Origin: Candidatus Colwellbacteria bacterium
GTDB taxonomy: Bacteria; Patescibacteriota; Minisyncoccia; UBA6257; Colwellbacteraceae
Length of the DNA stretch: 24,000 bases
Direction of reading: 5' to 3'
Assembly: GCA_016178255.1 (NCBI GenBank)
Contig: JACOTQ010000022.1
Location: 1,961 to 25,960 of the forward strand
Numbering within the stretch: position 1 is the first letter of the stretch; each line of letters begins with the position of its first letter. This document shows, in pieces, positions 5,076 to 23,059 of the stretch. The notes under the pieces were generated by a model. That model worked only from the letters and a program-made list of their open reading frames with translations, searched no databases and was not told where the DNA came from. Both the position numbers and the translations under genes were made by a program.

Positions 5076-5168
5076 ATGAAACCATTTTCATTTTCCCCTC
5101 GGCCATACGGCCTCGAGTTTTAATTATTTTATTCGCCCCCACGCCAATCACATAGCATAGCTTGAAAA

Positions 5169-5206
5169 GGGCGGAGCCGAAGCCCAGCAGGGCTGAGGCG
5201 ACGCCT
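5169..5206. other. GC-rich symmetric stem-loop inside a 348-nt noncoding gap
   Basis: GGCG-GA-GCC-GAA-GCCC-AGCA-GGGC-UGA-GGC-GA-CGCC. Hand pairing gives three Watson-Crick helices separated by a tandem G.A/A.G step and a 3x3 internal loop. Confidence 0.5.
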
Positions 5207-5423
5207 TCCTTCCGTTAAAGACAGAAAACAGGGTGTTGTCGGGAGTGTGCCGTTCTCAAAAGAGGCAGATGGAATCAGGCCTTTATGGACATTTGCACGT
5301 TCACTTCTATGAATGAAGGGGTAATTGAAGAAGCGAATGAATAACTTTTGCCGTATCCAAAACTATGAATTTTTGGTAAAGTAGGTTCGTATTGGGTCAT
5401 AGAGAGTAGCCATATTGTGACAG

Positions 5424-7518: not shown

Positions 7519-7601
7519 AGGCTGACAATAACAAAAGTTCTCACATCTCCAAAAACTCCCCTATTTTGACTTCTCAATAAGCCGTATAATACTAATAACT
7601 A

Positions 7602-8204
7602 ATGACACAGGGCTTAAAAAAGCTTTTCGAGATAATCTTTCCTCACACAAGGCTGAACCGAAGTTTACGAATTCTCATCCTTACCAATTCGGTCATGGTT
7701 TTTATCCTGGGTTTATTTGCGCCCTTCTATGCCATCTTTGTACGAAATATTGGTGGTTCCATAGCCTTTGCCGGACTTTCTTGGGGAATTCTTTCCATAG
7801 TAGCGGGGGTTCTTATATTCCTTTTCTCTAACTGGGAACTAAAAGTAAAGGAGCCGGAACTTCTTATAGCTTTCGCTCACATCATCAGGGGTATGGTTTT
7901 CATAAGTTACGCCTTTATGGGCAGTATGACCCAGCTTATTATCACTCAAGTTCTCTGGGGCATTGCCATAGCTTTAAGCGCGCCATCATTTGATTCAGTT
8001 TACGCGGCCCACACCAACAAAAATGATTCTATTAGTGAATGGAGTGGCTGGGAAGGATTAGCCGCAATTTCGAGCGGTGTGGCAGCGCTAATCGGAGGAT
8101 TGATTATAGAAAGTTTCGGCTATCAATCCATATTTCTTGGCATGGCGGCAATCTCCATCGGTTTGGGCATATATATTTGGAGCTTACCCAGAGAAACTTT
8201 ATAA
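7602..8204 (+). CDS. Half-size MFS-like membrane protein (about six TM helices)
   Basis: 200 aa, almost entirely hydrophobic helices (ILILTNSVMVFILGLFAPFYAIF, LSWGILSIVAGVLIFLF, ...). The family call rests on topology and memory only. Confidence 0.6.
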   Translation: MTQGLKKLFEIIFPHTRLNRSLRILILTNSVMVFILGLFAPFYAIFVRNIGGSIAFAGLSWGILSIVAGVLIFLFSNWELKVKEPELLIAFAHIIRGMVFISYAFMGSMTQLIITQVLWGIAIALSAPSFDSVYAAHTNKNDSISEWSGWEGLAAISSGVAALIGGLIIESFGYQSIFLGMAAISIGLGIYIWSLPRETL

Positions 8205-8285
8205 AATAGTAACTAATACAAGTCAAATAATTTTTCTGTTGAAACGTCACATAAAACTCTATCTCAAGTCTGTAAAGTTGGGCGA

Positions 8286-8317
8286 TATACTATATCACCG
8301 ATCGGTGATATAGTATA
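8286..8317. repeat. 32-bp perfect palindrome TATACTATATCACCGATCGGTGATATAGTATA (copy 2), 25 nt upstream of the 8342 gene
   Basis: Positions 8286-8301 pair perfectly with 8317-8302. It differs from copy 1 at one arm position (T 8293 versus C 1773), and the partner base also differs (A 8310 versus G 1790). Confidence 0.9.
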
Positions 8318-8341
8318 CTTTAACATCAATTAACAAATGGG

Positions 8342-8680
8342 ATGGAAGTAACTCTTCAAAAACAATGTCCGAAGTGCAAAACCGAAGTTTCCGAAACGGC
8401 TTATTTTTGTTCTAATTGCGGACAACCTTTAAAATCCAGGCCGGAAAGCACTTCCATTCCAAAACAGATTCTTATCTACTTCGTGAGCTTTTTTCTCGCG
8501 CCCCTTGGCTTAGTCTATACTTTTAAATACCTGCGGCAACCGGATAAAAAATCAAAAACAATCGGCGCTGTCTCTTTAGCCTTAACCATTGTAGCTATAA
8601 CGGCAACCGTTTATTTAGGGATAGCATACACCAAACAACAATACAGCGAAATTAATTCACTTCTTAACGGCGGACTATAA
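8342..8680 (+). CDS. Zinc-ribbon domain membrane protein
   Basis: CPKCKTEVSETAYFCSNCG (CxxC...CxxC) is followed by two hydrophobic helices. Confidence 0.7.
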   Translation: MEVTLQKQCPKCKTEVSETAYFCSNCGQPLKSRPESTSIPKQILIYFVSFFLAPLGLVYTFKYLRQPDKKSKTIGAVSLALTIVAITATVYLGIAYTKQQYSEINSLLNGGL

Positions 8681-8746
8681 ACACCAACCCGAGAAACTAA
8701 AATAGCCACCTGCTTCTAGGTGTGGCTATATTGGCTACTAATTTGG

Positions 8747-8779
8747 AAAAACAAAAGGCCAGTCGAAATGACTGGTCCT
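8747..8779 (-). terminator. Rho-independent terminator downstream of the SPFH gene
   Basis: On the minus strand, AGGACCAGUC-AUUUC-GACUGGCCU (9 bp with one bulge) is followed by UUUUGUUUUU. Confidence 0.7.
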
Positions 8780-8870
8780 TTGCCATTAGGCTAACCCTAT
8801 TGGCACACTTATTTATATTAGCGAAAGGCATAGCCCAATGATATCATCTACGGCTTATCTCCCACCACCC

Positions 8871-9652
8871 TTATTTAGTGGCAGGGTTGACGTTGAAGAA
8901 CGTCATGAACGCTGGAAGACCAGATGCCGATCCCGTATTCTGACTCTGCCCGTTGACAATGTATGTTTCGGGCACATCACCGGTCCACTTCTCCGCAAGC
9001 TTCAAGAAAGCTTCAGCATAAATCTTTGAGATAAGTTTTTCTCCTTGCTGTGATGCAAGGGCTTGAGACTCAAGACGAGTCTTTTCGGCAAGAGCCTCAG
9101 CTTTCTTGATTTCCTGCTGCTTCTTTTGCTCCTGGCTGGCCGTGATGTTGGCTTCTGCGAGCGCATTCTGTGCTTCAACCTGCTTCCTCTTCACCGCTGC
9201 CTCATATTGTCAACGAGGTCATTCGCCGTGAATGCAGACAATGAACTTTCAAGAACATCAGGCATGTTAGGCGAGATGAGCTTTGCTTCGTAGTTCAGTT
9301 GTGTCTCACGATAGGCCTGTTCGACCTGTCCTGGGTCAACCTTATAGTTGACAGTAACAGTTGTGTCGACGATCTGTGAGTCTTTTGAATAGACCGGCGC
9401 AGTCATCTTGAAAGTCTGAATTGTGAGGTCGGCTTTCACAACCTGGTCGATCAGAGGAACTCGTAGTGCTAAGCCCGTGTCCGGTGGAAGGGTATGGTGG
9501 ATCGCCTTATTCCTAAGGACGATGCCAGCCTCAGTTCCGCCAATCATCGTGATCGGCCACAGAATGAATAACAGGACGATGCCCACTGCAGCGATTATAC
9601 CCCAGGCGACCAACTTTGCGCCTGTCGGAATTCCTTCAATTGGATTTGCCAT
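8871..9652 (-). pseudogene. SPFH/band-7 (prohibitin/stomatin-like) membrane protein, disrupted by an internal deletion plus a frame change near 9203-9209
   Basis: The N-part from ATG 9652 gives MANPIEGIPTGAKLVAWGIIAAVGIVLLFILWPI (TM) ...GIVLRNKAI...VPLIDQVVKADLTIQTF...FTANDLVDN, then stops at 9191. The C-part, in another frame open from 9209, gives EAAVKRKQVEAQNALAEANITASQEQKKQQ...IYAEAFLKLAEKWTG. The roughly 40 residues that normally lie between the ..ELI..R block and the AIE.K..A.Q coiled coil are absent. Confidence 0.75.
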
Positions 9653-9653
9653 A

Positions 9654-9749
9654 TTATTTCTTTTTGCTGTTAAGGATTTTCGTTTTGATGAACCACGCAA
9701 CCGCGCAGATGATCGCAAGGAAGAATCCAGCTTCGATTAAAAGTCTCAT
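9654..9749 (-). CDS. Tiny membrane ORF (31 aa) abutting the SPFH start codon
   Basis: MRLLIEAGFFLAIICAVAWFIKTKILNSKKK. Its TAA stop is 1 nt from the SPFH ATG (TAA-T-ATG). There is no homology evidence. Confidence 0.35.
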   Translation of the reverse strand: MRLLIEAGFFLAIICAVAWFIKTKILNSKKK

Positions 9750-10191
9750 ATACTGTTTTGATTAATACCAGTTGTAACGTTAAACGTGTACAAGCGGTAT
9801 AGTTAATGACTCAAAACGCATTATTAACAATTCTCGACCCGCAAAAAGGTTTTATTAAGCTATACCTTAATATGCAATTGTTAACGATCGTTCTTAGGCA
9901 AGACATTACTATATTTATATAATATTGTCAAGTTAGCCCTAGGTACCTTCAACCCTCAAGCACAACGCCTGTTAACTCATATAATACCTCAAAGGTTGTT
10001 CAAACTCTCACTTCCTTGCTGATGTACTTAAGGATATCAGCGAGGAAAGAAGTAAATTGGATGCGCTCTCGTTCCTCAATCGAAAAATGATTGTATTTCA
10101 TACACTCTGATTACATAAGAGGGGCGCACTTACTTGTTGAAGTTAGTGCATAGATTAGGCTACTAACACTTTTAACGGTATAATCCAACCA

Positions 10192-10752
10192 ATGAATATC
10201 AAAAAAGAATTTACAATCCTATCCAATATGCCCAAAGAGCTTCGATGGATAGGCGACCCCGTTCTTAGAGCTAAGACAAAAGATATAAAACCTCTGGATA
10301 TCCCCAAAGCGGAAACCAAAAGAATCATCAGCAAAATGAATCTCGCACTCGACAAAATACAAAAGTATTCGAGAGGCGTCGCGATTGCCGCTCCGCAGAT
10401 TGGAATTTCCAAATCGGTAACTGTCGTAGATTTCGCGGGAAAACGCGCCACGTTTATAAATCCTAAAATTTTAAAATACTCTAAAACGCGCAATGTTTAT
10501 ACGGAGGGTTGCTTAAGTTCATCGCCTCTCTTTGCGGATGTCATAAGACCAAAGACCATCAGAGTTTCCTATTACGACTCATCTGGCAAACGTCACATAG
10601 AAAACATTTATGGCGGACTTGCCAGAATTCTACAGCATGAAATCGACCACCTTTACGGAATTCTATGCGTTGATAGATGTTCCTTAAAATCCGCTCAATA
10701 TGTTTTTGATGTTGAGAAATTCAAAAAAGGGTTAAAATTCCGGCGGGTTTAA
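10192..10752 (+). CDS. def: Peptide deformylase
   Basis: All three signature motifs are present: GVAIAAPQIG, EGCLS, HEIDHL. TATAAT at 10179-10184 ends 7 nt before the ATG. Confidence 0.9.
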   Translation: MNIKKEFTILSNMPKELRWIGDPVLRAKTKDIKPLDIPKAETKRIISKMNLALDKIQKYSRGVAIAAPQIGISKSVTVVDFAGKRATFINPKILKYSKTRNVYTEGCLSSSPLFADVIRPKTIRVSYYDSSGKRHIENIYGGLARILQHEIDHLYGILCVDRCSLKSAQYVFDVEKFKKGLKFRRV

Positions 10753-10777
10753 CAATAAGCCTCCTATTCCATCGCCC

Positions 10778-11578
10778 TCAAAACTTTGAGATACATATCC
10801 TCAACGATTTTACGTCCAACGCGTCGCCCCCAGAGGAAAGATTGGCATTATCCAAAAGATATATTCTCTGTTTCGCCTGGAGAACGGAACGCGTACTCAA
10901 GCCTTGTCTCTTAAGAACTTGCCCGATACGCGGGTCATCCGCCTTAATCGCGGTATCGCGGCCGCGAGCAATAAATTGATTTTGTTTTTTTATAAGCAAC
11001 TGGTGAATTGTGGAACGACCATCGCCCATCAAATTAAGAGGCAGCCTTTGATAAGTGGAAATTACTTTATTATCTAAAACCACAATCCTGTAATCCTTAC
11101 CAGCAATATATGGCTGAACCAAAGCGGCCCTGTCATTTTTAAAAATAAATTTCAGCGAGCGATAGAAATCGCTTTTGGTATAAACCTTAGCCATTCCTAC
11201 GCCTTGACTGCCGCTGTTGGGCTTTACAACAACCGGAAAGCCGATTCTCATAGCGTATCTATAAGCGGAGTCAATATTCCTCCTGGAACCGATGGCACGG
11301 CAGAACTCGCTTGAAAAAAACGTCTTGCCGGGTACGGTTGGATATCCCATCCGCTTCATAAAAAAAGCGGCATAGTCCTTGTCTTTGGCTATATCGGAAG
11401 CGCCGACCGGATTCAAATCTATAGTTGAGCCCCTAAAATAACGCCTGCGGCCATTCTTAAATGTTATTTGCCCCACAAAATTCCACTCCGGCTCCATTAC
11501 GACAGTCGCCCCAATCTTCGAAGCAAGTTTCCGAAAAACTTCCCCTAAAAAGGGTCTGCTTGGTTGCTTACGTTTCAT
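10778..11578 (-). CDS. ATP-grasp enzyme (cyanophycin-synthetase-N-terminal-like/RimK-type), apparently C-terminally truncated by a deletion and frame change near 10812-10816
   Basis: The blocks GFPVVVKPNSGSQGVGM, LVQPYIAGKDYRIVVLD and LLDNANLSSGGDALDV match the ATP-grasp core. The ORF then ends after 10 unrelated residues without the usual E-x-N Mg/ATP loop. A different frame reads ...GRKIVEDMYLKVLRAME and stops at 10764, which looks like the natural C-terminus. Confidence 0.7.
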   Translation of the reverse strand: MKRKQPSRPFLGEVFRKLASKIGATVVMEPEWNFVGQITFKNGRRRYFRGSTIDLNPVGASDIAKDKDYAAFFMKRMGYPTVPGKTFFSSEFCRAIGSRRNIDSAYRYAMRIGFPVVVKPNSGSQGVGMAKVYTKSDFYRSLKFIFKNDRAALVQPYIAGKDYRIVVLDNKVISTYQRLPLNLMGDGRSTIHQLLIKKQNQFIARGRDTAIKADDPRIGQVLKRQGLSTRSVLQAKQRIYLLDNANLSSGGDALDVKSLRICISKF

Positions 11579-11597
11579 AACGATAATAATCTACCTG

Positions 11598-11626
11598 TTG
11601 ACACATATTTTCAATTCAGCTAAAAT
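11598..11626 (+). promoter_or_regulatory. Near-consensus sigma-70 promoter (TTGACA, 17-nt spacer, TAAAAT)
   Basis: TTGACA at 11598-11603, a 17-nt spacer, and TAAAAT at 11621-11626, read directly. It drives the short unit that ends at the 11767-11801 terminator. Confidence 0.6.
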
Positions 11627-11640
11627 TCAAATCAGAACAT

Positions 11641-11739
11641 ATGAAATCAGTCGCATCGGTAAAACAAATAAGTTTGGTCGTCCTTAACTTAGGGCTACTA
11701 ACTCTTCTTTACCGGAAGGCTGGTTTGTGTATGTCGTAA
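11641..11739 (+). CDS. Hypothetical 32-aa hydrophobic peptide, or a noncoding sRNA body
   Basis: MKSVASVKQISLVVLNLGLLTLLYRKAGLCMS. No Shine-Dalgarno sequence. It lies between a strong promoter and a strong terminator, so the transcription unit is better supported than the coding call. Confidence 0.3.
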   Translation: MKSVASVKQISLVVLNLGLLTLLYRKAGLCMS

Positions 11740-11766
11740 ATTTATATAGTTGCAGTAGTAAGAAAT

Positions 11767-11801
11767 AAAACCCGCCTTCCAAAAGAAGGCGGGTTTTATT
11801 T
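11767..11801. terminator. Bidirectional rho-independent terminator
   Basis: AAAACCCGCCTTC-CAAAA-GAAGGCGGGTTTT has a 13-bp perfect stem, an A-tract before and a T-tract after, so both strands see a hairpin followed by a U-run. Confidence 0.85.
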
Positions 11802-12110
11802 CCTGTTCTTTCAGGCAGTTCCTTGTTCCAGTGTCCGCAAATCTTCAGAAAGGGGGTTTCGAATGAAACCGAAAAGGTATTTTGGGGAATTTGGACACTA
11901 CTCTACCGACCATCCTATGGGCGGCTGGGGGTTCGGTTCGGAAGAACTGCGCCCCCTTGTCCGTAAGACGCAAGGAGAGCAACGCTTTCTCCTCCAGGCG
12001 CCGGAAAAACCCGGCACAGAGGAAAAGCAAGCCAGCGACAAATAGCCGCCGGCAATCCACCGCAACGAGGACTCTTCAGGAACACTCCCGAGGAGTCCTC
12101 TTCACTTAAA
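11802..12110 (-). ncRNA. Candidate structured ncRNA of unknown class (GC-rich, multi-hairpin, no credible ORF)
   Basis: The region is visibly more GC-rich than its flanks, and all three listed ORFs here overlap in different frames. Hand-found helices: 12067-12100 (13 bp, one mismatch); GCGCCGG/CCGGCAC at 11998-12017; AAGGAGA/TCTCCTC at 11972-11994; GGGGG/CCCCC at 11927-11956 enclosing GTTC/GAAC; GGACA/TGTCC at 11884-11962, which closes a three-way junction. The minus strand is preferred only because the element runs into the bidirectional terminator. The strand is uncertain. Confidence 0.35.
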
Positions 12111-12160
12111 ACATCTCTTGATTATTGGGTAAAAAATAATTTTGACTGTACAATCATATT

Positions 12161-12847
12161 ATGAAAAAGCGAACTTTCGCGGCTAAAGCTCTAAATTTCT
12201 ATAACGCCTTGGAATTTACTAATAAACTCCCTCATGGAGTCAAAATAATGAACCCGTACAAGGAGCCGGAAACACAAGGATATTTGAAGGAGTTCCTAGG
12301 AAAGTTTTTCGCGGATAATGTTGGCCGCGTCGCGGTTTTCGGCATAAATCCGGGAAGGTTCGGTTCCGGCATTACTGGGATAACTTTCACCGACCCGGTG
12401 GCGCTCGCGCAATTTTGCGGGATTCCAAACAATCTGCCACAAGTTCGTGAACGCTCGTCGGAATTCATATACGAATTTATCAATCATTGGGGCGGTCCGG
12501 AGAAGTTTTATCGCGACTTCTTTCTCACGGCCGCCTCGCCTCTTGGTTTCACGCGTAACGGAATCAACTTTAATTACTATGATGACCGACTCCTTTTCAA
12601 ACTCGTCAAACCTTTTATAATTGAGTCAATCAAAGCCCACTTTGATTTCAGTATCCGTCCCGAAACGGCCATCATCTTGGGCACCGGAAAAAACCAAAAG
12701 GCGCTCACCAAAATTAATCAGGAGTTCGGATTCTTCAAAAAAGTTTACGCCGTCGAACATCCCCGTTTCATAATGCAGTATCGAAGGAAAAAGCTAAAAG
12801 AATATATCAAAAGATACCGGGATGTCTTTAGCCAAGCTATGAAATGA
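12161..12847 (+). CDS. Uracil-DNA glycosylase superfamily protein, SMUG2/DUF4918-like
   Basis: FGINPGRFGSGITGITFTDP, SPLGFTR..NFNYYD and EHPRFIMQYRRK match my memory of DUF4918 proteins. TACAAT ends 6 nt before the ATG. Confidence 0.7.
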   Translation: MKKRTFAAKALNFYNALEFTNKLPHGVKIMNPYKEPETQGYLKEFLGKFFADNVGRVAVFGINPGRFGSGITGITFTDPVALAQFCGIPNNLPQVRERSSEFIYEFINHWGGPEKFYRDFFLTAASPLGFTRNGINFNYYDDRLLFKLVKPFIIESIKAHFDFSIRPETAIILGTGKNQKALTKINQEFGFFKKVYAVEHPRFIMQYRRKKLKEYIKRYRDVFSQAMK

Positions 12848-12875
12848 GACATTAATTAACTATTATAATATTTAT

Positions 12876-13613
12876 ATGAATCAAACCAAATTAAAATATC
12901 TTCAGGATTTCACGCTTCTCGAATCAGTTTCGCGAGTTGTCGAAACTTCCCAGGAAAACGAACGAAATGTTGTCATACTGGACGAAACCATTTTTTACCC
13001 GCAGGGCGGCGGTCAGCCTTACGATAGGGGCATCATTGAGGGGCTCTCTGGGAAGTTCGCAGTTGAGGAAGTGCGTTTTATTGACGGCGTTGTAAAACAC
13101 ATCGGCAAATTTGAGAATGGCGTCCTTAATACTGGCGATGAAGTAAAATGCTTGGTTGATAGCCAGCGCCGGAAACTGCACAGCCGTATCCATTCCGCGG
13201 GTCATGTCGTTGACATGGCCGTTACTTCCTTGAACCTCAATTGGGTGCCCGGAAAGGGATATCACTTTCCTGATGGCCCCTATGTTGAATACGCCGGAAA
13301 CCTCGGCGAAACAGACAAAGAGAGGTTGAAAACCGACATTGAAAATTTGTGCAATAAATTTGTCGACGAAAATCGGGAAACCAAGCTTCTTCTTATAGAT
13401 AAAGAAAAAATGAAAGAGGTTTGTCATTTTGTACCCGACTATATTCCCGAAGATAAACCCGCGCGAGTTGTCATGTACGGCGATTTCGGAGTTCCGTGCG
13501 GCGGTACCCATGTCGGTCACCTTGGCGATATTGGCCATATGACTATTAGAAAAATAAAATCCGAGGGTGAAAACGTTCGCGTTGGTTATGACGTGGATAG
13601 AATTATTGATTAA
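12876..13613 (+). CDS. alaX: Alanyl-tRNA editing protein AlaX (tRNA synthetase second additional domain)
   Basis: FYPQGGGQPYDRG, the HSAGH zinc motif (HxxxH) and VPCGGTHV (CxxxH). TATAAT ends 6 nt before the ATG. Confidence 0.8.
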   Translation: MNQTKLKYLQDFTLLESVSRVVETSQENERNVVILDETIFYPQGGGQPYDRGIIEGLSGKFAVEEVRFIDGVVKHIGKFENGVLNTGDEVKCLVDSQRRKLHSRIHSAGHVVDMAVTSLNLNWVPGKGYHFPDGPYVEYAGNLGETDKERLKTDIENLCNKFVDENRETKLLLIDKEKMKEVCHFVPDYIPEDKPARVVMYGDFGVPCGGTHVGHLGDIGHMTIRKIKSEGENVRVGYDVDRIID

Positions 13614-13680
13614 TGATGGCCAATGATGTTGGGACGGTCTGCCGCGGAGCTTACTGCTTAGAAGTGGAAATCGCAGACAA

Positions 13681-13698
13681 TTTTTTTTTTTTTTTTTT
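13681..13698. repeat. T18 homopolymer tract
   Basis: Eighteen consecutive T counted directly. It is preceded by the GTCTGC...GCAGAC inverted repeat and followed 4 nt later by the -35 box of the pepN promoter. Confidence 0.95.
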
Positions 13699-13702
13699 GT
13701 CC

Positions 13703-13731
13703 TTGAAGTTAACGCCGGAGTTTCGGATAAT
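13703..13731 (+). promoter_or_regulatory. Predicted pepN promoter (TTGAAG, 17-nt spacer, GATAAT)
   Basis: The hexamers and the 17-nt spacer were read directly. The T18 tract sits where an UP element would. Confidence 0.5.
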
Positions 13732-13766
13732 TTCGAAACAGGCCAAGAGTTAACCTTTTATAGCCA

Positions 13767-16334
13767 ATGAAATCATCCGCAAAACAAGGGGTTCGCCTCC
13801 CCGCTCACATCAAACCTTTACGATATAAAATAAGCTTGAAACCAGACCTTGAAGCTTTTACTTTCGAGGGGGTTGAAACCATCAACCTGGCGCTAGGGAA
13901 AAGCTCCAACCAAGTCACCCTTCACTCCAAAGAACTGGATATTGAATCCGCCGAAGTCACAAGTGGCAAGGAGAAAACCTTTGCTTTGAAAATAGACTAC
14001 GATGAAAGGGCAGAAACCGCCACATTCACTTTTCCCAATAAAATCCGCAAGGGAAACATTCAGTTGAAGATAGTCTTTAGAGGAGTACTGAACGACAAAA
14101 TGAATGGCTTTTACAAAAGCCATTACAAGGTTGGCGATAAGACCCATTACATAGCCACCACGCAGTTTGAAGCGACTGACGCGCGGCGCGCTTTCCCGTG
14201 TTTTGACGAACCCGCGGCGAAAGCGGTATTTGATATTAGTCTCATTGTCCCCCAAAAAAGTACCGCTATTTCGAATACGATGCCAACGGAGATTCTGGAA
14301 CATGGAATGGGCTACAAAATAGTTAACTTCGCCCCGACTCCTAAAATGTCCACTTATCTTCTGGCTTTCATAGTTGGCGATTTCGAACATATCGAAAAAA
14401 GAACTAAAGACGGTGTATTGGTTAGAGTATTTGTGACGCCCGGTAAAATTCATCAAGCTCAATTCGCCCTTGAATGCGCCACGAAAATCATTTCTTTCTT
14501 TAACAAATACTTCGATATCCCCTATCCTCTGCCGGTAATGGACTTAATCGCGATTCCCGATTTTTCCGTCGGCGCGATGGAAAACTGGGGAGCAATAACT
14601 TACAGGGAATCGGCGATACTCCTCGACCCCGAACACTCTTCAACAACAAGCAAACAATGGATAGCTTTAGTTATCGCCCACGAGCTCTCACATCAATGGT
14701 TCGGCAATTTGGTAACTATGGAATGGTGGACGCATATATGGCTGAACGAAGGCTTTGCCTCTTATATAGAATATCTGGCCGTTGACCATCTCTTCCCTAA
14801 ATGGGATATATGGACTCAATTTATCCACAACGATTTGGGAACAGCGTTAGAATTTGACGCGCTTCAAAACACTCACCCGGTTGAGATTGACGTTCATCAC
14901 CCGGAAGAAATAAGCGAGATTTTCGACGCGGTCAGTTACTCAAAAGGCGCGAGCATTATTCGCATGCTTGCGGAATATTTAGGTGAAACCGACTTCCGTA
15001 ACGGCCTTCGATATTATCTCAAAAAACACAGCTATTCCAATACTTCAACTATTCACCTCTGGAAGGCGTTAGAGAAAGTATCGGGGAAACCTGTAGAAAA
15101 AATGATGAGCGGCTGGACAAGGAAAAGCGGCTACCCTCTCATTACGGTATCGGAAAATAAAGGCAGGCTTATGATAGAACAGAAAAGATTCTTCTCAAGC
15201 CCCATTTCTGAATCTAAAACCAAGGACGCCGCGCTTTGGCGTGTGCCCGTAAGCTACAAAACCAATGATACAAAACTGAAAAAACAGTTTCTTCTCACAA
15301 AGCAAAAGGTTGAAATCACAAAACCAACCGGTGAATGGATTAAATTCAACATCAATGAATCGGGATTTTTTAGAACAAATTACTCGGATAACCTTAGGAA
15401 AGCTCTCGAGGATTCTGTAAAAACAAAGCGACTGGGGGCCGGTGACCGGCTCGGCCTCATTCGTGATATCATGGCATTAACTGAATCAGGTAAAATTCCG
15501 ACGGTAAAGGCGCTGGAATTCGCCAAGCACTACAAAAACGAAACAGATTATACCGTCTGGCTGGAATTAGCCTCCGACCTTAATAAAATTCATTTTCTAA
15601 TCGCGCATGAACCGTTTGTAAAAGAATATGAGTCTTTTGCCGCTAAAATATTCGCCCCCATTGCCGAAAAAGCCGGCTGGACAAAAAAACCAAATGAAAA
15701 TCATACCCAAACCCTCTTGAGAAGCCTGGCTCTTTCAAGCTTCGGAACATATGGAGACTTGGAAACAATCAACCAAGCTAAAGAATTATTTGGGAAATTG
15801 AAGGATGGCAAAAATTCCATTCACGCTGACCTAAGAAGTGTCGTCTACAATTTAACTACTAAGAACGGTGGGGTGAAAGAATACGAGAAACTGGCAAAGA
15901 TGTACAAAGCAGTGTCGCTTCATGAAGAAAAAAACAGAATCGGAAGAGCTTTGGGTAATTTCAGAAACAAAAACTTGCTAAAGAAAACTTTGGCGTTCTC
16001 TTTATCGAAACATGTGCGTCCGCAAGACACCATTGGAATAATCGCTGGCGTTTGGTTTAACCCTGATGGTCATGACTTGGCCTGGAATTTCGTAAAAGCA
16101 AACTGGGAAGATTTTCTGAAACGCTACGGCGGCGGTCATAGCCTTTCGCGGCTTTTGGCTTGCGCCGGTTCTTCGGCCTCGGCAGCTCAAGCAAAAAATT
16201 TCAAAGACTTTTTCAAGAAAAACGCCGCCCCGGGCGCTAAGAGGACCATTGAACAAGCTTTAGAGAGTATAAATTCCAACGTAGCTTGGCTCATGCGAGA
16301 GAAAATAAGACTGGCAAAGTATTTCCTTAAATGA
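13767..16334 (+). CDS. pepN: Aminopeptidase N (M1 family zinc metallopeptidase)
   Basis: 855 aa with the GAMENWG exopeptidase motif and HELSHQWFGNLVTMEWW...WLNEGFA (HExxH-18-E). Confidence 0.9.
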   Translation: MKSSAKQGVRLPAHIKPLRYKISLKPDLEAFTFEGVETINLALGKSSNQVTLHSKELDIESAEVTSGKEKTFALKIDYDERAETATFTFPNKIRKGNIQLKIVFRGVLNDKMNGFYKSHYKVGDKTHYIATTQFEATDARRAFPCFDEPAAKAVFDISLIVPQKSTAISNTMPTEILEHGMGYKIVNFAPTPKMSTYLLAFIVGDFEHIEKRTKDGVLVRVFVTPGKIHQAQFALECATKIISFFNKYFDIPYPLPVMDLIAIPDFSVGAMENWGAITYRESAILLDPEHSSTTSKQWIALVIAHELSHQWFGNLVTMEWWTHIWLNEGFASYIEYLAVDHLFPKWDIWTQFIHNDLGTALEFDALQNTHPVEIDVHHPEEISEIFDAVSYSKGASIIRMLAEYLGETDFRNGLRYYLKKHSYSNTSTIHLWKALEKVSGKPVEKMMSGWTRKSGYPLITVSENKGRLMIEQKRFFSSPISESKTKDAALWRVPVSYKTNDTKLKKQFLLTKQKVEITKPTGEWIKFNINESGFFRTNYSDNLRKALEDSVKTKRLGAGDRLGLIRDIMALTESGKIPTVKALEFAKHYKNETDYTVWLELASDLNKIHFLIAHEPFVKEYESFAAKIFAPIAEKAGWTKKPNENHTQTLLRSLALSSFGTYGDLETINQAKELFGKLKDGKNSIHADLRSVVYNLTTKNGGVKEYEKLAKMYKAVSLHEEKNRIGRALGNFRNKNLLKKTLAFSLSKHVRPQDTIGIIAGVWFNPDGHDLAWNFVKANWEDFLKRYGGGHSLSRLLACAGSSASAAQAKNFKDFFKKNAAPGAKRTIEQALESINSNVAWLMREKIRLAKYFLK

Positions 16335-16394
16335 CAGCGGAAAAGAAGTAAGATCTTTTGACCAGCCAGCTTTGGCAAATACGAAAATAAAAAC

Positions 16395-16416
16395 CGCCCC
16401 GCAAAATTGCGGGGCG
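16395..16416. terminator. Hairpin terminator shared by the convergent pepN and csp genes
   Basis: CGCCCCGC-AAAATT-GCGGGGCG. On the minus strand it is followed by GUUUUUAUUUU (strong). On the plus strand it is followed by AUCUUUCC (weaker). Confidence 0.75.
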
Positions 16417-16433
16417 ATCTTTCCATCTAAAAC

Positions 16434-16631
16434 TTAGGCTCGCGCCACGTTCTTGGCGCTTGGACCCTTCTCCGTGTCAACAACCTCAAAAGTGACCGCA
16501 TCGCCTACTTTGAGTTCGTCGAACATCACGCCGCTTAAATCCTTAGAGTGGAAGAAAAGGTCCTTGTCTTCGCCCTCGCGAGCGATAAACCCAAAACCTT
16601 TATCTGTAAGCTTCTTGATAGTTCCTGTCAT
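16434..16631 (-). CDS. cspA: Cold-shock protein (CspA family)
   Basis: MTGTIKKLTDKGFGFIAREGEDKDLFFHSKDL... carries the RNP1 KGFGFI and RNP2 LFFH motifs; 65 aa. Confidence 0.9.
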   Translation of the reverse strand: MTGTIKKLTDKGFGFIAREGEDKDLFFHSKDLSGVMFDELKVGDAVTFEVVDTEKGPSAKNVARA

Positions 16632-16726
16632 ATGATTTTTAGTTTTTCTTCTTAGAAACCCGACCTAGTCTCTCTGTGCCTATATAGGCTGGCACAAACC
16701 AAATTATACAACTAATTAGAATTATA

Positions 16727-19700
16727 TCAACCCCAATGGTCCTTTAGAAGGTCATCCTCAAAAGCCATTATGCCATTCATATCTTTTGGATATTTGGCGA
16801 TATCAGGGAAATCTAGAGATTTTATTTTGTCATACACGACGCTAATCAAAGCCTTCATCCGTTCAAGCTCTTTCTTTTCTATATGGGCAGGTAAATCTAT
16901 AATCTGTCCGCGGGAAGGTTCTACAAACTGAATAATACCGTCATTAACCGAATACTTCCCTCCAAAATCTCGTGAATTCTCAATAAGTAGCTTATAAAAA
17001 ACAAGTTGTTCGCGGTATCGCCAAGCTTTTATTTTTTCGTATGAATCGCTTGGCGACCAATCTCTAATCGCTTTACCAGTCTTAAAATCGCAAACTGTCA
17101 TCTCGCCATTCGAAATTGTTATTTTATCAATTTTGCCAGTAATATGCGCGTCTCCTACAACCACGCCCTGACTTCTAAAATTAAATTCAATTTTATCTTG
17201 CAATGAGAAACTGCTTTTCTTTTCAGTATAGAATGCCTCAAGCGCCCTCTGGCCCCTCTTTAACATCAGCCTGAACTCTTTCTCATTCAGACGTTCATTT
17301 TTGAGCATTTCTTCAAACCAAAAAATGACTTCTCTTACTAAGGGCAATTTCCTCCGGCTCTTGAAATGGGTATATATAAATTGAATCGTGTTATGAATGG
17401 CTGAACCGTACGCTCCGCTTGGGCTCTTAGGTTCAGGAAATCTCAATAAATTTTTCTCGAAAAAAGCGAGAGGCCCGCCGCCGGCAACATTCAAGAAATT
17501 CTGCAAATGCGTCACACTCAAATGATAATCCTGAAGAAGTGGTTTAAGTAACGCCTTTTCATCAGAGACAAAAGGTCCGCCGCGTGTTGGGTTCCAAAGT
17601 CTGATTGCCAATTCTTCGGAACCAAATCCGGCGCCCTCCATGCTCACAAACTCCGATTTAAACAGTTCGCTCTCCCCGTGAGACGGAGATAAAAATCCAA
17701 GCCGGGCGGAATCTTTGCCTCTATGGTCAGCGTTATAAGAAGTAAGATACAGTAACCGCTTAGCCCTCGTCATGGCCACATAGAATAGTCTTAACTTGTC
17801 ATCGAGGTTATCCCCAGCCGGCTTTATGGATAAATTCATTGGCAACGGCACACTCCTTCCGCTACGCCTCTCTCCCCAGATATCTTCTTGGCAATTAATT
17901 ACAAAGACTGCTTCAAACTCAAGCCCCTTTGCTTTGTGGGCACTCATAAACTGTACTGCGTCATTAGCATTAACGAATTGGCTCACATTATTAATAGCCA
18001 AGTTATTTTTGAGATGCATATCAATAAAATTAAGCATGTCCGCCGTTAGCACCGGCCTGCCACGGTGATATTCGCGAAGCGCTGCCACGAAGGATTGCAA
18101 GGACGATAAGAAGCGCATATATTCGGCAGGCTCTTTGGCAACGCGGTCTTTGCTAAAATAATACGACCTAAACGGGCTGAACATTTCATGCCTTACGATT
18201 GTTTCGTCTTCGCTATCTTCGTCTGGCAATATTTGCTGAGGCCCGCCTACTAATTCATGGAAAATCTCCTCGGCTGTTCCGTAAGTGGCTCGCGCGCCGA
18301 GGTCAATAAAAAAATCGGCTATCTCCTTGAACTTTCCACCGCGTTCTCGCATAACCGTGAGCCACTGTTTTCTTTCCCTGCGAGCTTTAATTGAAAGCTC
18401 CCAGACCATCGAACGCTCAATGCTCCAAAAGGGATAACTTAATATTTCAGGCAGAAGATTATCGGCTTCTCCGGACTTTTTCATTATTGAATCAACGAAT
18501 CTCACCATCGTGAAAAGCTCGCGGATGTGCGGCTGAAGAAGCACATTATCCTGACGTTCGTAAGAAACCGGCACTTTAGCGGCGTGGAAATATGGAACCA
18601 AGTCTTCGAGTTCCTTATGTTCCCGTGCTATGATGGCAACTTCATTCCCGAGAACGCCCTTTTTGATAAGTTTCTTAACTTCCTCCGCAATCCAGCGATA
18701 CTGAACATCTCGTGACACAAACTCTCGGCCGTAAACAGCTCCGTCTTTAAGGACTCTATTTGCCGAGACAAGTTCTTTTTTCACGTCAGGCAAGATATTC
18801 TGAAGCTGGCCCATACCTTTCTTGATAATATGGCGCGCCGCGTCAAGTATATCTTGCGTCGAACGATAATTTCTCGTGAGGACAATCAATGACGGGTCAC
18901 GATACGTTTTTCGAAAATCGATGATATTTGAAATCTCCGCGCCTTGAAACTTGTAAATCGCCTGGTCGTCATCACCCACAACCATCACGTTCGGCCGGCC
19001 TTCATGGATTTCATGGCCCGTTAAAAGGCGCAGCAAGCGCATTTGAGCGTTATTGGTGTCTTGAAACTCATCCACGAGGATATATTGATATTGTTCCTGC
19101 AAATCAAGCTTCACGCCGACATTGCGTTCAAGCATCGCTATTGTATCAAGTATCATGTCGTTATAATCATAATAGCCCTCCTCCCGCATGCGCGCCGCGT
19201 ATTCTACATATATCTCCGAGAGAGCCTCGATTCTTTCAGCCTTAAATAAATCTGCCAAATGAGTGAGCTTATCGTCGCCTCTCTCGGTCCAATTCTTTTT
19301 CCATTGTGTTATCGGTCCAGTACTATTGTTTTCTTGCGCATCCCTCACGGCGACGGAAAGCGTGCTGGCAATAAATTCAGAGAGAGGTTCAAAGAATCCT
19401 GGCAGAGGAACGGATTTACATTTTCTGATTTTCGAGACCGCTTTTAACACAACTGGAAGCGTTTTTGGGGAAATTCTGTCCTTGAACACAGCTTGAACTA
19501 TTGGGTCAGCATAGGCTATGGCTTTTTCATTTTCAGCAAGAATATTTTTGAACTCGGCGGGAGTTAATCCGGCCTTTTTGATGTACTCAATTGCCTGTCT
19601 TGCTTTCTGTAAATAAACGAACTGACTATTGTGTTCGGAGCGCAATGGATTTCCGTAATCAAGCCCGCTAAAAATTTCTTCCAAAATCTCCGTCTGTGTA

Positions 19701-20062
19701 AAGTCATCAGCCGGAAGAAATGACACGCCTCCATAGAAATGCTCCGGATAACGATTAATTATCTCCACGCCAAAACTATGAAAAGTGTGGATTGCCACGC
19801 GGTAAGCTTCCTGCCCGAGCAAACCAGTCAAACGCTGTCTCATATTGAAAGCGGCGGCTTCAGTAAAAGTTAAGCAAAGTATATTCCCCGGCGTAACATC
19901 CACATTCCGTAAAATATTCATAACACGCAGACTTAATAACTCTGTTTTACCAGACCCAGGTCCAGCAATCACCATTACCGGGCCCTCAATCGTATCCACC
20001 GCTTTTTTTTGTTCAGGATTAAGGCGTTTATAAGCCGCCTCGAACTTTGATGACATTTTCAT
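16727..20062 (-). CDS. UvrD/PcrA-type superfamily-1 helicase fused to a C-terminal PD-(D/E)XK nuclease domain (AddA-like)
   Basis: The helicase motifs are in order: AGPGSGKT, TFTEAAA, VDEFQDTN, VVGDDDQAIYKFQGA, LTRNYRS, MSAHKAKGLEFEAVFV, FYVAMTRAKRLLYLT. The C-terminus, GKIDKI...VCDFKTGK...REQLVFYKLL, is the nuclease D...(D/E)xK...QxxxY pattern. Confidence 0.85.
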   Translation of the reverse strand: MKMSSKFEAAYKRLNPEQKKAVDTIEGPVMVIAGPGSGKTELLSLRVMNILRNVDVTPGNILCLTFTEAAAFNMRQRLTGLLGQEAYRVAIHTFHSFGVEIINRYPEHFYGGVSFLPADDFTQTEILEEIFSGLDYGNPLRSEHNSQFVYLQKARQAIEYIKKAGLTPAEFKNILAENEKAIAYADPIVQAVFKDRISPKTLPVVLKAVSKIRKCKSVPLPGFFEPLSEFIASTLSVAVRDAQENNSTGPITQWKKNWTERGDDKLTHLADLFKAERIEALSEIYVEYAARMREEGYYDYNDMILDTIAMLERNVGVKLDLQEQYQYILVDEFQDTNNAQMRLLRLLTGHEIHEGRPNVMVVGDDDQAIYKFQGAEISNIIDFRKTYRDPSLIVLTRNYRSTQDILDAARHIIKKGMGQLQNILPDVKKELVSANRVLKDGAVYGREFVSRDVQYRWIAEEVKKLIKKGVLGNEVAIIAREHKELEDLVPYFHAAKVPVSYERQDNVLLQPHIRELFTMVRFVDSIMKKSGEADNLLPEILSYPFWSIERSMVWELSIKARRERKQWLTVMRERGGKFKEIADFFIDLGARATYGTAEEIFHELVGGPQQILPDEDSEDETIVRHEMFSPFRSYYFSKDRVAKEPAEYMRFLSSLQSFVAALREYHRGRPVLTADMLNFIDMHLKNNLAINNVSQFVNANDAVQFMSAHKAKGLEFEAVFVINCQEDIWGERRSGRSVPLPMNLSIKPAGDNLDDKLRLFYVAMTRAKRLLYLTSYNADHRGKDSARLGFLSPSHGESELFKSEFVSMEGAGFGSEELAIRLWNPTRGGPFVSDEKALLKPLLQDYHLSVTHLQNFLNVAGGGPLAFFEKNLLRFPEPKSPSGAYGSAIHNTIQFIYTHFKSRRKLPLVREVIFWFEEMLKNERLNEKEFRLMLKRGQRALEAFYTEKKSSFSLQDKIEFNFRSQGVVVGDAHITGKIDKITISNGEMTVCDFKTGKAIRDWSPSDSYEKIKAWRYREQLVFYKLLIENSRDFGGKYSVNDGIIQFVEPSRGQIIDLPAHIEKKELERMKALISVVYDKIKSLDFPDIAKYPKDMNGIMAFEDDLLKDHWG

Positions 20063-20166
20063 GTAATTACTTAAAGCATATATTAATTTGTTTTATTATC
20101 CAGATGTGTGGTATATCCTAAATTAGGAATGTCTCCAGATCTTTAAGTCTTCAATAAGGAGCTGAT

Positions 20167-21485
20167 ATGCAGCCATATGTACGGACGAGAGTGAATGGAA
20201 TCGAGATACGGAATACGCGACCGGCGAATGCCATGGAGCGCGGGAAGCTTCGCTCCACAGCAAGGCAGGCGATAAAATTATGGCAGGAATCTTCAGCGTA
20301 CCGAGAGATAACGGCTCCTGCCTGGTTTTAATCAAAAACAACCTTGCTCACAACCTCGAGGATAGTAATCCGCTCGCGTCTTTCGGAGCGCATGAGAATA
20401 TCCAAGTTTTCGATATTCCCATGGGCGACCAAAGCGTGAATGACGCCCTCATCCCTTTTTTGATGAGCCGACAAATCATTGGCGGCGCGGGATGCGTTTT
20501 ATCCTCCGGAGAATACTGTTATTCCCAGCGCGGACTGATGATGGAATACGGGTGGGGCAACAACACAACCCACAACCGCTCCATGATTAGCGGGCACAGG
20601 GAATCCCACACCGGTTCTTACACCCAATCGAGAAGGCTCCATATCATCACGGGCGATTCCAACATGCTCGAGTACCAGACTTGGCTGAAACTCGCCATCA
20701 CAAACATCATCGTTGCGATGATGGAGACGAGCGCCTCAGTTCAGTTTGGCTATTCGTTAAAGCGCGTTGCTCTTCCCGATGATAAGATTCGTGAGCAGAT
20801 AGCGATTGAGATGGCTGACGTAAGCCGTGATTTTATAAATCATGGCCGGACGCCTCTCATTACGCTGGGAGACGGGAGTTTGGTAAGCGCCTATGATTTA
20901 CAGGCGCGTTATTGGGAAGCCGCGGATAAATTTGTCCGTAAAGCACGGTTTGAATCAGAACGGTGGGAACAAGAGACAAAAGAAGCGATGTCAGCTTGGC
21001 AGTCAATTCTGCACGCAATATACAGGAATGACACCGACTATCTGGAAGGACGTCTGGACCATACGACGAAATATGTTGTTATACGCGAATATCTAAAACG
21101 TACGGGCAAGGATTTGTTTCAATACCCGTCGCTTCTCGCGGAAAAACACACATTCGACGTTATGTATCATCGCCTTCCAATTTCAGGTTCGAACGCGCCA
21201 ACACTTTTCGAACGCATTCGCAACCATTATAAGTCGCGAATGCTATTCAGTGACGCGGAAATAGACCAAGCGGTGGAAAATCCACCGCAGAAAACACGAG
21301 CCTTTATGCGAGGCAAGTGCGCCGCGACGCTTCATGGGCTCAAAAAACAAGGGAGGCTCGACGGCAGCTCCATCCTGAATTGGGACAGCCTTAGTTATCA
21401 AGGCGCCCGATTTGAAATCGCGGACCCGCTTATGTACAAAAAAGACGGGTTTGAAACGTTCTTACACAAAATAGAAGTATCGTGA
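20167..21485 (+). pseudogene. Pup ligase/deamidase (PafA/Dop) family protein, with an N-terminal internal deletion plus a frame change at about 20206-20208
   Basis: AAGGAG, 5 nt, then ATG 20167 gives MQPYVRTRVNGIE (the GIETE(Y/F)G start), and the frame then breaks. The frame of ORF 20280-21485 is open from 20166 and resumes at TEYATGEC. It continues through KNN..SFGAHENIQV, LIPFLMSRQIIGGAG, YSQRG, RRLHIITGDSNMLEYQTWLKL and EIDQAVENPPQKTRAFMRGK, all blocks I recognise from PafA/Dop. Confidence 0.8.
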
Positions 21486-21524: not shown

Positions 21525-21559
21525 GCAGCAGATGCCAGAAACATCTGCTGCTCTTTTTT
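21525..21559 (+). terminator. Rho-independent terminator after the PafA-like gene
   Basis: GCAGCAGATG-CCAGAAA-CATCTGCTGC (10-bp perfect stem) followed by TCTTTTTT. Confidence 0.85.
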
Positions 21560-21604
21560 AAAAGGTTGATTTAAAACAGAATATCATCCAAGATAGAGAG
21601 CGTC

Positions 21605-23059
21605 ATGCCGAACGACAACGTAATTTTAAGATTCAATAAAGTCTCATTTGAATATGGACACAATAAACCAATCCTCAACGAGGTTGATTTCTCAATCCGC
21701 CGAGGGTCAAAAATCACGCTTATGGGGCAAAACGGCGCAGGCAAGAGCACTATTTTCCAGTTAATCACGGGGGCGCTAAAACCGATAACGGGAACCATTG
21801 CCATCACGGACGGCGCCACAATGGCCATAAGCAGACAAGTAATCCCTCGCGATGAGATGGATATGACGGTGAAAGCTTTCTTCGAAAACGCTTTTCCCGA
21901 AAAAGTTTATGACATTAAACCGCGTATCGACAAAATCCTTGGAGTCGTTCATCTCACTACGCCTCATAATAAAAAACTCAAGGAATTCTCCGGAGGCCAG
22001 CAAGCCAGACTCCTCTTAGCCCAAGCCCTAATCCAAAATCCCGACATCCTGCTTTTAGATGAACCGACTAATAATTTAGACAAGGCCGGCATAGCTCATC
22101 TAACTCAATGCCTCATTGATTACCCAAAAACATGTATTGTTATTTCTCACGACGCCGAATTTTTAAATGAGGTCACTGACGGAGTTTTATATCTCGAGGT
22201 TTTCAATCGCACGATTGAGCAATATTCCGGCAATTACTTCTCCGTGGTAGAAGAAATCAAAAACAGGCTGGAACGGGAGCGAATGAAAAATGCCCGGCTT
22301 GAGAAAGATATCCGGCATCGAAAAGAACAAGCTGGCTTCTTTGCTCAAAAAGGCGGTCATATGCGCGATGTCGCCAGAAAAATGCGCGAAAAAATAGAAG
22401 AGCTGGAAGACGAAACTGTGGAAGTTAGACGCGAAGACAAAACTATCCGCAGATTCGTCATTCCGTGCCAAGAAAACATCGGCGCCGCGATTGTAACTTT
22501 GAAATCAGTTTCAATTATAAAAGGCGGTAAGCCCAAAAGTTTCCCTGTAAACATTACGCTCCGAAAGAAGGAGCGACTGCTTATAGCCGGACCTAATGGC
22601 ATTGGAAAGACCACCCTTTTGGAAAAACTCGCTTCAGGCACGGCTGTTGGTGAAAGTGTTCAGAAGGGAATACGAATCGGCTATTACCGGCAAGATTTTT
22701 CCGCCCTGAATTTCGATGACACCGTGTACGCAACACTCTCGAAAGCGATAGAGAACGGCACCGAACAGGAACTTCGTTCTCACGCCGCCGGATTTCTTTT
22801 CGACGCCGAAATGCTAAAAACCAGGATTAGCTCTCTTTCCGAAGGCCAAAAAGGACTTCTTGCCTTCGCGCAAATCGCGCTCCAACGTCCTGGCCTTTTG
22901 ATTCTTGATGAACCAACAAACCATATTAATTTCCGGCATATTCCAATAATCGCGCAAGCAATTGACGCCTACGAAGGCGCGATGATTCTCGTAAGCCATG
23001 TCCCGGATTTTGTTAAACTGATTCGAATTGACCAAATTATTGACCTCGAAGAACTTTAA
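21605..23059 (+). CDS. ABC-F family ATPase (two tandem ABC domains, no TM domain)
   Basis: Domain 1: GQNGAGKST, FSGGQQARL, ILLLDEPTNNLD, ISHD. A charged linker follows (RLERERMKNARLEKDIRHRKEQ...). Domain 2: GPNGIGKTT, LSEGQKGLL, LLILDEPTNHIN, VSHV. Confidence 0.85.
   Translation: MPNDNVILRFNKVSFEYGHNKPILNEVDFSIRRGSKITLMGQNGAGKSTIFQLITGALKPITGTIAITDGATMAISRQVIPRDEMDMTVKAFFENAFPEKVYDIKPRIDKILGVVHLTTPHNKKLKEFSGGQQARLLLAQALIQNPDILLLDEPTNNLDKAGIAHLTQCLIDYPKTCIVISHDAEFLNEVTDGVLYLEVFNRTIEQYSGNYFSVVEEIKNRLERERMKNARLEKDIRHRKEQAGFFAQKGGHMRDVARKMREKIEELEDETVEVRREDKTIRRFVIPCQENIGAAIVTLKSVSIIKGGKPKSFPVNITLRKKERLLIAGPNGIGKTTLLEKLASGTAVGESVQKGIRIGYYRQDFSALNFDDTVYATLSKAIENGTEQELRSHAAGFLFDAEMLKTRISSLSEGQKGLLAFAQIALQRPGLLILDEPTNHINFRHIPIIAQAIDAYEGAMILVSHVPDFVKLIRIDQIIDLEEL

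Follow-up and report, generated by a model that had tools for sequence, protein, structure and literature searches.

The gene at positions 20167-21485 of a 24,000-nt stretch of contig JACOTQ010000022.1 (hereafter designated the window), which comes from a metagenome-assembled genome (MAG) labelled Candidatus Colwellbacteria, had been assigned in an initial annotation to the Pup-ligase/deamidase (PafA/Dop) family and described as an orphan with an N-terminal lesion. We lean towards reading this locus as a PafA-type single-gene unit, of which the intact form would be a Pup-tag ligase and in which the loss of 160 nt near the start of the gene is most likely an assembly fault. To judge from the sequence, the window gene truly belongs to the Pup-ligase/deamidase family, as a divergent PafA-type representative in a Parcubacteria-type genome of the candidate phyla radiation (CPR); it adds a new, divergent member to a known family of enzymes, and the NCBI label already says so. 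The more interesting result concerns its relatives outside the window, which point to CPR-type genomes in which a Pup system is tied to a Lon-like protease. The gene and its immediate signals are laid out as follows.

20156-20161 (+): Shine-Dalgarno-like AAGGAG, 5 nt ahead of the ancestral start codon, read directly from the sequence
20167-20205 (+): the 13 codons that opened the ancestral gene (MQPYVRTRVNGIE) and now open a 54-aa dead-end open reading frame (ORF) at 20167-20331
20206-20217 (+): deletion junction (ATACGGAATACG), located by two overlapping blastn alignments with the intact ortholog
20208-21485 (+): remaining 425 codons and stop codon of the PafA-like gene of the Pup_ligase family, in a frame different from that of the start codon
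20280-21485 (+): longest ORF with a standard start (401 aa), ATG 20280 being the first ATG, GTG, or TTG of the main frame
21525-21560 (+): terminator-like hairpin (hairpin proper, 21525-21551) with a 10-bp stem followed by TCTTTTTT, 40 nt past the stop codon, from a consensus scan only

The ATG at 20167 encodes MQPYVRTRVNGIE, a segment that matches MQPYIRVRANGIE of the intact ortholog described below as well as the N-terminal G-I-E-x-E motif of the family, and its reading then leaves the frame of the gene and runs to a stop at 20331; the 54-aa frameshift ORF thus delimited gave no match in NCBIfam and Pfam scans. The main frame is open from 20167, reads TEYATGEC... from 20208, and ends with the stop codon at 21483-21485. 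When the two parts were conceptually joined, the protein matched the Pfam Pup_ligase model (PF03136) with 223.5 bits (E 6.7e-66; profile positions 81-429 of 441), above the curated gathering threshold of 25 bits, and the sequence blocks from which the family had initially been recognized (KNN, FGAHEN, IPFLMSRQIIGGAG, SQR, RRLHIITGDSNM, and PPQKTRAFMRG) were all present, which confirms the family call. On the NCBIfam models, the window protein scored 184.8 bits for PafA and 162.4 bits for Dop; both scores fall far short of the equivalog cut-offs of 551.3 bits (PafA, TIGR03686) and 492.3 bits (Dop, TIGR03688), neither of which is reached. BLAST identity to PafA- and Dop-like matches in other phyla was only 28-30%. 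By these scores, the gene is PafA-like, yet it is no equivalog of actinobacterial PafA. The terminator-like hairpin behind it makes the gene look like a single-gene transcription unit. The NCBI entry for the product, MBI1838874.1 ('MAG: proteasome accessory factor PafA2 family protein [Candidatus Colwellbacteria bacterium]'), comprises 436 aa, begins with MCTDESEW..., and has its annotated start at an ATA codon in the window; this annotation was extended upstream over the junction, and the gene was not flagged as disrupted.

A scan of species-representative genomes provided an intact ortholog on a 9.6-kb contig (L005, genome CAZFGN01), which is 90% identical to the window gene in protein and 86% in DNA. 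Its N-terminus is complete (MQPYIRVRANGIEIEYGVV...GYVDTGNHPEYATGEC) and, as in the window, is preceded by the arrangement TAAGGAGCTG...ATG. Two blastn alignments pair L005 5711-8220 with window 17736-20217 and L005 8376-9597 with window 20211-21432, such that the heptamer GAATACG at window 20211-20217 aligns to both ends of the missing stretch (L005 8214-8220 and L005 8376-8382). The net loss relative to L005 amounts to 160 nt, which is 53 codons plus one base and hence explains the frame change; two readings are possible, a 160-nt deletion together with two substitutions or, with the 7-nt direct repeats at its ends, a 162-nt deletion together with two extra nucleotides. The N-terminal lesion was accordingly placed correctly, and its size approximately so, in the initial annotation.

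When 157 family members were aligned, 52 columns were at least 85% conserved across the PafA/Dop relatives, and the deleted stretch contains six of them (N56, G57, Y61, D63, H67, and E69 in L005 numbering); outside the deletion, the window protein and the L005 ortholog keep all such columns but two, the substitutions Y132I and G230A being common to both. D63, within YVDTG of L005, aligns with the Asp of YLDVG in PafA of Corynebacterium glutamicum (4b0t), and the equivalent residue is Asn in the PafA-Pup crystal construct 4bjr. This Asp, situated in a loop between two strands of the beta-sheet cradle, has been proposed to act as the catalytic base or nucleophile (PMC3511204). The catalytic Asp is present in L005 and missing from the window copy, where it would lie in the deleted segment; moreover, the GIE of the window (20197-20205) is in a frame different from that of the gene body, and the G-x-E-x-E strand is not in frame. 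Likewise, the 401-aa ORF from 20280 would be without the N-terminal Glu pair and the catalytic Asp loop. Because the 160-nt loss both breaks the frame and removes the strand-loop segment with the catalytic Asp, the window copy as written is predicted to be unable to encode an active enzyme. A programmed frameshift or an internal start was rejected, since about 53 codons with invariant residues are physically absent.

What remains of the gene shows no sign of decay other than this single lesion: the 425 codons contain no further stop or frameshift, and their comparison with L005 gave 0.05 nonsynonymous (dN) and 0.73 synonymous (dS) substitutions per site, with a dN/dS ratio of 0.07. The rest of the ORF is under strong purifying selection, equal to that on the nearby LexA gene (dN/dS 0.078), and the neighbouring helicase is much less conserved (dN 0.24). 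Two further genes of the window were found to be split in a similar way.

757-1765 (+): dnaX, split in two frames (757-1317 and 1211-1765), with about 36 residues missing
8871-9718 (-): SPFH/Band-7 (prohibitin-like) gene, split in two frames (9718-9191 and 9194-8871), the join lacking about 32 residues

The alignment of dnaX with E. coli gamma (1xxi) leaves residues 107-142 unmatched, a part that should include the Walker B box, and that of the SPFH gene with prohibitin-2 (8rrh) leaves residues ~158-189 unmatched. For the latter, L005:1326-2117 was tried as an ortholog and discarded because the sequence looks like TrpA, so that the SPFH lesion has no reference. Within 24 kb, therefore, three genes (the PafA-like gene, dnaX, and the SPFH gene) each carry a frame-breaking internal loss of ~100-160 nt. 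Since dnaX is essential, its ATPase core is very unlikely to have truly suffered a frame-breaking loss, and the occurrence of the same type of lesion in three genes, one of them essential, fits a technical cause common to all. We thus judge it rather probable that the 160-nt loss is an assembly or scaffolding artefact, in which sequence was dropped at contig joins, and favour this explanation over a recent pseudogene. As a property of the gene itself, the lesion reported initially is not borne out, in view of the same damage in dnaX and the SPFH gene, the low dN/dS ratio, and the intact, nearly identical ortholog of L005. Because an essential gene nearby has the same defect, the N-terminal lesion of the window copy should not be read as gene decay before the assembly has been checked.

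Several points weigh against an artefact. The window contains no N at all, and the NCBI protein is translated straight over the junction, showing that the deposited record is contiguous there; for the same reason, an explanation by runs of N stripped from a scaffold was rejected for this junction. The 7-nt direct repeat at the junction is also a signature of replication slippage. The case for an artefact is circumstantial. Finally, a groundwater project whose accession series the window MAG resembles built its scaffolds from MEGAHIT contigs joined by the IDBA-UD scaffolder (PMC7906910), but only this series suggests that the MAG belongs to it; PRJNA640378 as its BioProject is likewise a probable assignment on that ground. 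It is accordingly conceivable, with a distinctly lower probability, that the lesion is biological: the gene would have become a pseudogene very recently, or the sampled population would have fixed a deletion variant, in a lineage that is giving up a PafA-like ligase it does not need. The contiguity of the deposited sequence and the position of the junction at the short repeat GAATACG, just where replication slippage would put it, both speak for such an event, as do the absence of visible partners of the gene from the window and the presence of an apparent half MFS transporter in a stretch that L005 does not have. However, with the other 1.27 kb free of stops and frameshifts and a dN/dS ratio of 0.07, the inactivation would have to be extremely recent, and the like damage in dnaX, which is indispensable to the cell, argues for a technical cause shared by the three genes.

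Very improbable is a reading in which translation from ATG 20280, or from the ATA start chosen by NCBI, yields the truncated product and this product acts without catalysis, for instance by binding a Pup-like tag. An open frame of 401-436 aa does remain, and NCBI lists a protein rather than a pseudogene. Yet no Shine-Dalgarno-like site lies ahead of 20280, the strong site serving the out-of-frame ATG 20167; the product would be without the first strands of the central sheet and would lose eight invariant residues; and no other member of the clade starts there, the other full-length matches beginning at profile position 1-6.

The region in which a Dop-specific insertion might be found is deleted in the window, so the distinction of PafA from Dop by this loop, as had been suggested, was possible on the 90%-identical L005 ortholog only. 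Among solved structures, C. glutamicum PafA (4b0t) matched the L005 ortholog best; its alignment starts at residue 7 and shows PafA spacing. With Dop structures, the alignment does not begin until residue 53, which indicates that the ortholog has no Dop-type insertion. The PafA model also outscored the Dop model by 10 to 66 bits for the window protein, for its relatives P0002-P0004, and for the solitary genes of L005 and L006; PafA scores of the clade relatives ranged from 171 to 250 bits, all under the equivalog cut-off. Compared with characterized PafA (TIGR03686; 4B0T and 4BJR from C. glutamicum), the gene belongs to the same Pfam family, and its L005 ortholog keeps nearly all conserved residues and an N-terminal region of PafA length; it differs in that the window gene has no adjoining pup, dop, mpa, or prcBA and in that this copy is out of frame and without the segment of the catalytic Asp. 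With Dop (TIGR03688; 4B0R and 5LRT) it shares the fold family and the conserved active-site residues, but the window gene scores lower on Dop than on PafA, and the L005 ortholog is without the Dop-specific N-terminal insertion.

The intact enzyme, in the form found in L005, would be an ATP-dependent carboxylate-amine ligase. By analogy with PafA (PMC3511204), it would use ATP to activate the gamma-carboxylate of the Glu that ends a Pup-like tag and join the tag to lysine. The tag and any unfoldase or protease partner would presumably be encoded elsewhere in the genome; related lineages appear to encode an Mpa-like ATPase, a Dop-like enzyme, a Pup (ending in GGQ or GGE), and a LonB-like protease alongside the ligase. 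One point tells against this assignment: no Pup-like gene lies near any member of the solitary subclade to which the window gene belongs (see below), so that the proposed substrate is one that we infer.

Relatives were collected by an exhaustive profile search, which gave 4,992 family members at E values up to 0.001, of which ~50 representatives score about 300-540 bits with a profile made from the closest relatives of the window protein. In a rough neighbour-joining tree, the window protein, the L005 ortholog, P0002, and P0026 (from a Candidatus Sungbacteria MAG) form a small subclade within a clade of ~56 sequences. A metagenome scan with the intact ortholog returned one distant relative only. 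Some members of the wider clade lie in gene clusters that we regard as candidate pupylation modules.

L007:6119-14275 (Parcubacteria group): pupylation module
L008:4854-14282 (Candidatus Niyogibacteria): pupylation module
L091:2669-11936: pupylation module
L093:1-8698: pupylation module

Each module contains an Mpa-like AAA ATPase, a Dop-like gene of 533-569 aa, and one or two PafA-like genes, together with a small ORF of 57-77 aa and a LonB-like protease of 820-850 aa. For the AAA ATPase, the best NCBIfam model was the proteasome ATPase pup_AAA (318 bits in L007 and 261 bits in L008). The Dop-like gene is the first Pup_ligase gene in L007, L008, and L091, and in L007 and L008 this gene scores higher on Dop than on PafA. 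The small ORFs end in ...FIRNYRQKGGQ (L093), ...KYRHKGGE (L091), ...KYRQKKAE (L007), and ...NKQTNAE (L008), the ends in L007 and L008 being degenerate. The L093 ORF passes the Pfam Pup threshold (29.7 bits, cut-off 27); NCBIfam gave no match for the tested small ORFs of related loci, and NCBIfam and Pfam together gave the Pfam Pup match for the L093 ORF only. The 60-aa small ORF of L008, used as a query, retrieved nothing beyond near-identical copies, too little to build a profile of a CPR Pup family. The four loci showed no 20S genes. These findings indicate that pupylation exists in the wider clade, probably without a proteasome, and the gene content of the modules suggests that Pup tagging is coupled to a Lon-type protease in Parcubacteria-type genomes. 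They also bear on the choice left by the initial annotation, namely whether the partners of the window gene are encoded elsewhere or the family has a proteasome-independent role, since the modules combine Mpa-like, Dop-like, Pup, and LonB-like genes without 20S subunits.

Pupylation is known and studied almost entirely in Actinobacteria. UBact is a Pup-like tagging system outside Actinobacteria, in some Gram-negative and candidate phyla, and the window family can be likened to it, by description, only as Pup-like tagging outside Actinobacteria. In the searchable literature, which did not cover the UBact paper, nothing relevant was found that connects pupylation, PafA, Dop, or UBact with CPR, Patescibacteria, or Lon. 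In Parcubacteria-type genomes, the Pup-ligase family and a recognizable Pup occur with a Lon-like protease in place of a proteasome, and one subgroup retains the ligase only, under strong selection. Both findings bear on the question of whether, in minimal genomes, proteins tagged with Pup can be passed to a protease other than the proteasome or the tag has some other use. Pupylation without a proteasome has a counterpart in corynebacteria, and the enzymes of such organisms are noted as more divergent (PMC3511204). The likeness lies in Pup-ligase genes in a region without 20S subunit genes; unlike the window, in which the ligase stands alone, the ATPase gene, dop, pup, and pafA of those genomes are clustered in a fixed order (PMC3511204). 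The PafA-like genes of the Mpa-like/Dop-like/PafA-like/Pup/LonB-like modules belong to the ~56-member clade that also includes the window gene, but their identity to it is ~30-33%, and the window gene and its three closest relatives have no other module genes nearby.

Solitary contexts were found for the genes of the window, L005, L001 (P0002), L085/L086 (P0026), and L006, the DNA inspected for partners being 10-24 kb per genome, and no Pup-like ORF ending in GGQ or GGE was present in the 24-kb window or near the genes of L005, L006, L001, and L085/L086. In L085/L086, FtsH lies upstream and RecG downstream of the Pup_ligase gene, and that of L006 sits between an ornithine carbamoyltransferase gene and a SurA-like gene. 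A 79-aa ORF after the P0026 gene was considered as a candidate tag and rejected, being Cys-rich and ending in Asn, not Pup-like. The synteny comparison called for initially thus places the subclade (window, L005, P0002, and P0026) always in a solitary position in the DNA inspected, with the divergent helicase-nuclease shared by L005. A further arrangement is seen in L088:10001-16331 and, with the same layout, in L089, where uvrC on one side and dnaJ-dnaK-grpE on the other enclose four tandem Pup_ligase paralogs (484, 477, 551, and 471 aa); the 21 kb contain neither a pup-like ORF nor an Mpa-like ATPase.

These contexts leave room for a rather unlikely alternative, in which the intact gene of the solitary subclade encodes not a Pup ligase but a carboxylate-amine ligase acting on another substrate, such as a different peptide tail or a small molecule, in genomes without pup, mpa, and dop. 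It would agree with the solitary position of all subclade members seen (window, L005, L001, and L085/L086), none with a Pup-like ORF nearby, with scores of one third of the PafA equivalog cut-off, and with the lineage of four tandem paralogs, which suggests functional diversification in the family. The sequence of the enzyme argues otherwise: the L005 ortholog retains all but two (Y132I and G230A) of the 52 columns conserved across the PafA/Dop relatives, and the neighbour-joining tree nests the subclade in a clade whose operon-encoded members adjoin a bona fide Pup; furthermore, with 10-24 kb inspected per genome, a pup gene may well lie farther away. Pup-tag ligation remains our preferred function for the intact enzyme. 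More tentatively, a small CPR group may hold a strongly conserved PafA-like ligase apart from all other pupylation genes, which would either use a distant tag feeding a Lon-type rather than a 20S protease or have a new substrate. If true, the Pup-ligase fold would serve ultra-small symbionts independently of a proteasome, and the break in the window copy would be merely a technical blemish.

The surroundings of the gene in the window were identified by family scans. Its immediate neighbours, a helicase-nuclease and an ABC-F ATPase, are those recognized initially.

16727-20062 (-): UvrD-type helicase fused to a PD-(D/E)XK nuclease, 1111 aa, divergent upstream neighbour
21605-23059 (+): ABC-F type double-ATPase, downstream neighbour

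The helicase-nuclease is conserved and likewise divergent in L005 (4663-8040, -); the ABC-F ATPase is, to our knowledge, a partner of no known pupylation system. Other families of the window are the two dnaX fragments, an HNH nuclease, an RPE65-type dioxygenase, a methyltransferase, a Ham1 pyrophosphatase, LexA, half an MFS transporter, SPFH, peptide deformylase, an ATP-grasp enzyme, uracil-DNA glycosylase (UDG), an AlaX-like editing protein, and an M1 aminopeptidase, besides the helicase-nuclease and ABC-F. Among the larger ORFs, the family scan found no Mpa/ARC ATPase, Dop, 20S subunit, or Lon protease. The small ORFs were screened for Pup-like C-terminal endings only, the 54-aa frameshift ORF alone being also scanned against the libraries, and no reading frame of the window has a Pup-like C-terminus save a chance '...RGGE' at 5129-5362 (-), which is without a usable start codon. 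The initial statement that pup, mpa, and proteasome genes are absent from the window therefore holds; the description as AT-rich is valid in a relative sense only, the G+C content of the window being 36-48%.

Solitary and expanded Pup_ligase genes of the clade recurrently stand beside DNA-repair genes, namely the UvrD-nuclease fusion in the window (16727-20062, -), UvrC in L002/L088 (8289-9665), and RecG in L085 (8706-10850); this adjacency may be a coincidence in small genomes.

The genomes of the window and L005 are related but rearranged. Between two blocks shared with L005, window 8681-16740 holds ~8 kb (SPFH, def, ATP-grasp, UDG, AlaX-like, and M1 aminopeptidase genes), and the same place in L005 (1304-4715) holds ~3.4 kb with a PALP-domain gene (Pfam) and a neighbour looking like TrpA. 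The taxon labels clash, in that the window protein is assigned to Candidatus Colwellbacteria and the 86%-identical L005 contig to Candidatus Saccharibacteria, so that at least one label is wrong. The half MFS transporter is an ORF of 200 aa (7602-8204, +) whose match covers positions 2-174 of the 347 in the profile, the first half only; window 7537-8342 is absent from the otherwise collinear L005 and may be a gene remnant or a further assembly problem. Finally, a full-length gene of the RPE65/carotenoid-oxygenase family (3654-5075, +; E 8.8e-128) is present in this genome labelled CPR; just upstream are an HNH endonuclease (2829-3281) and an ORF (2391-2705) that looks GIY-YIG-like to the eye, and the RPE65-family gene may have been acquired horizontally.

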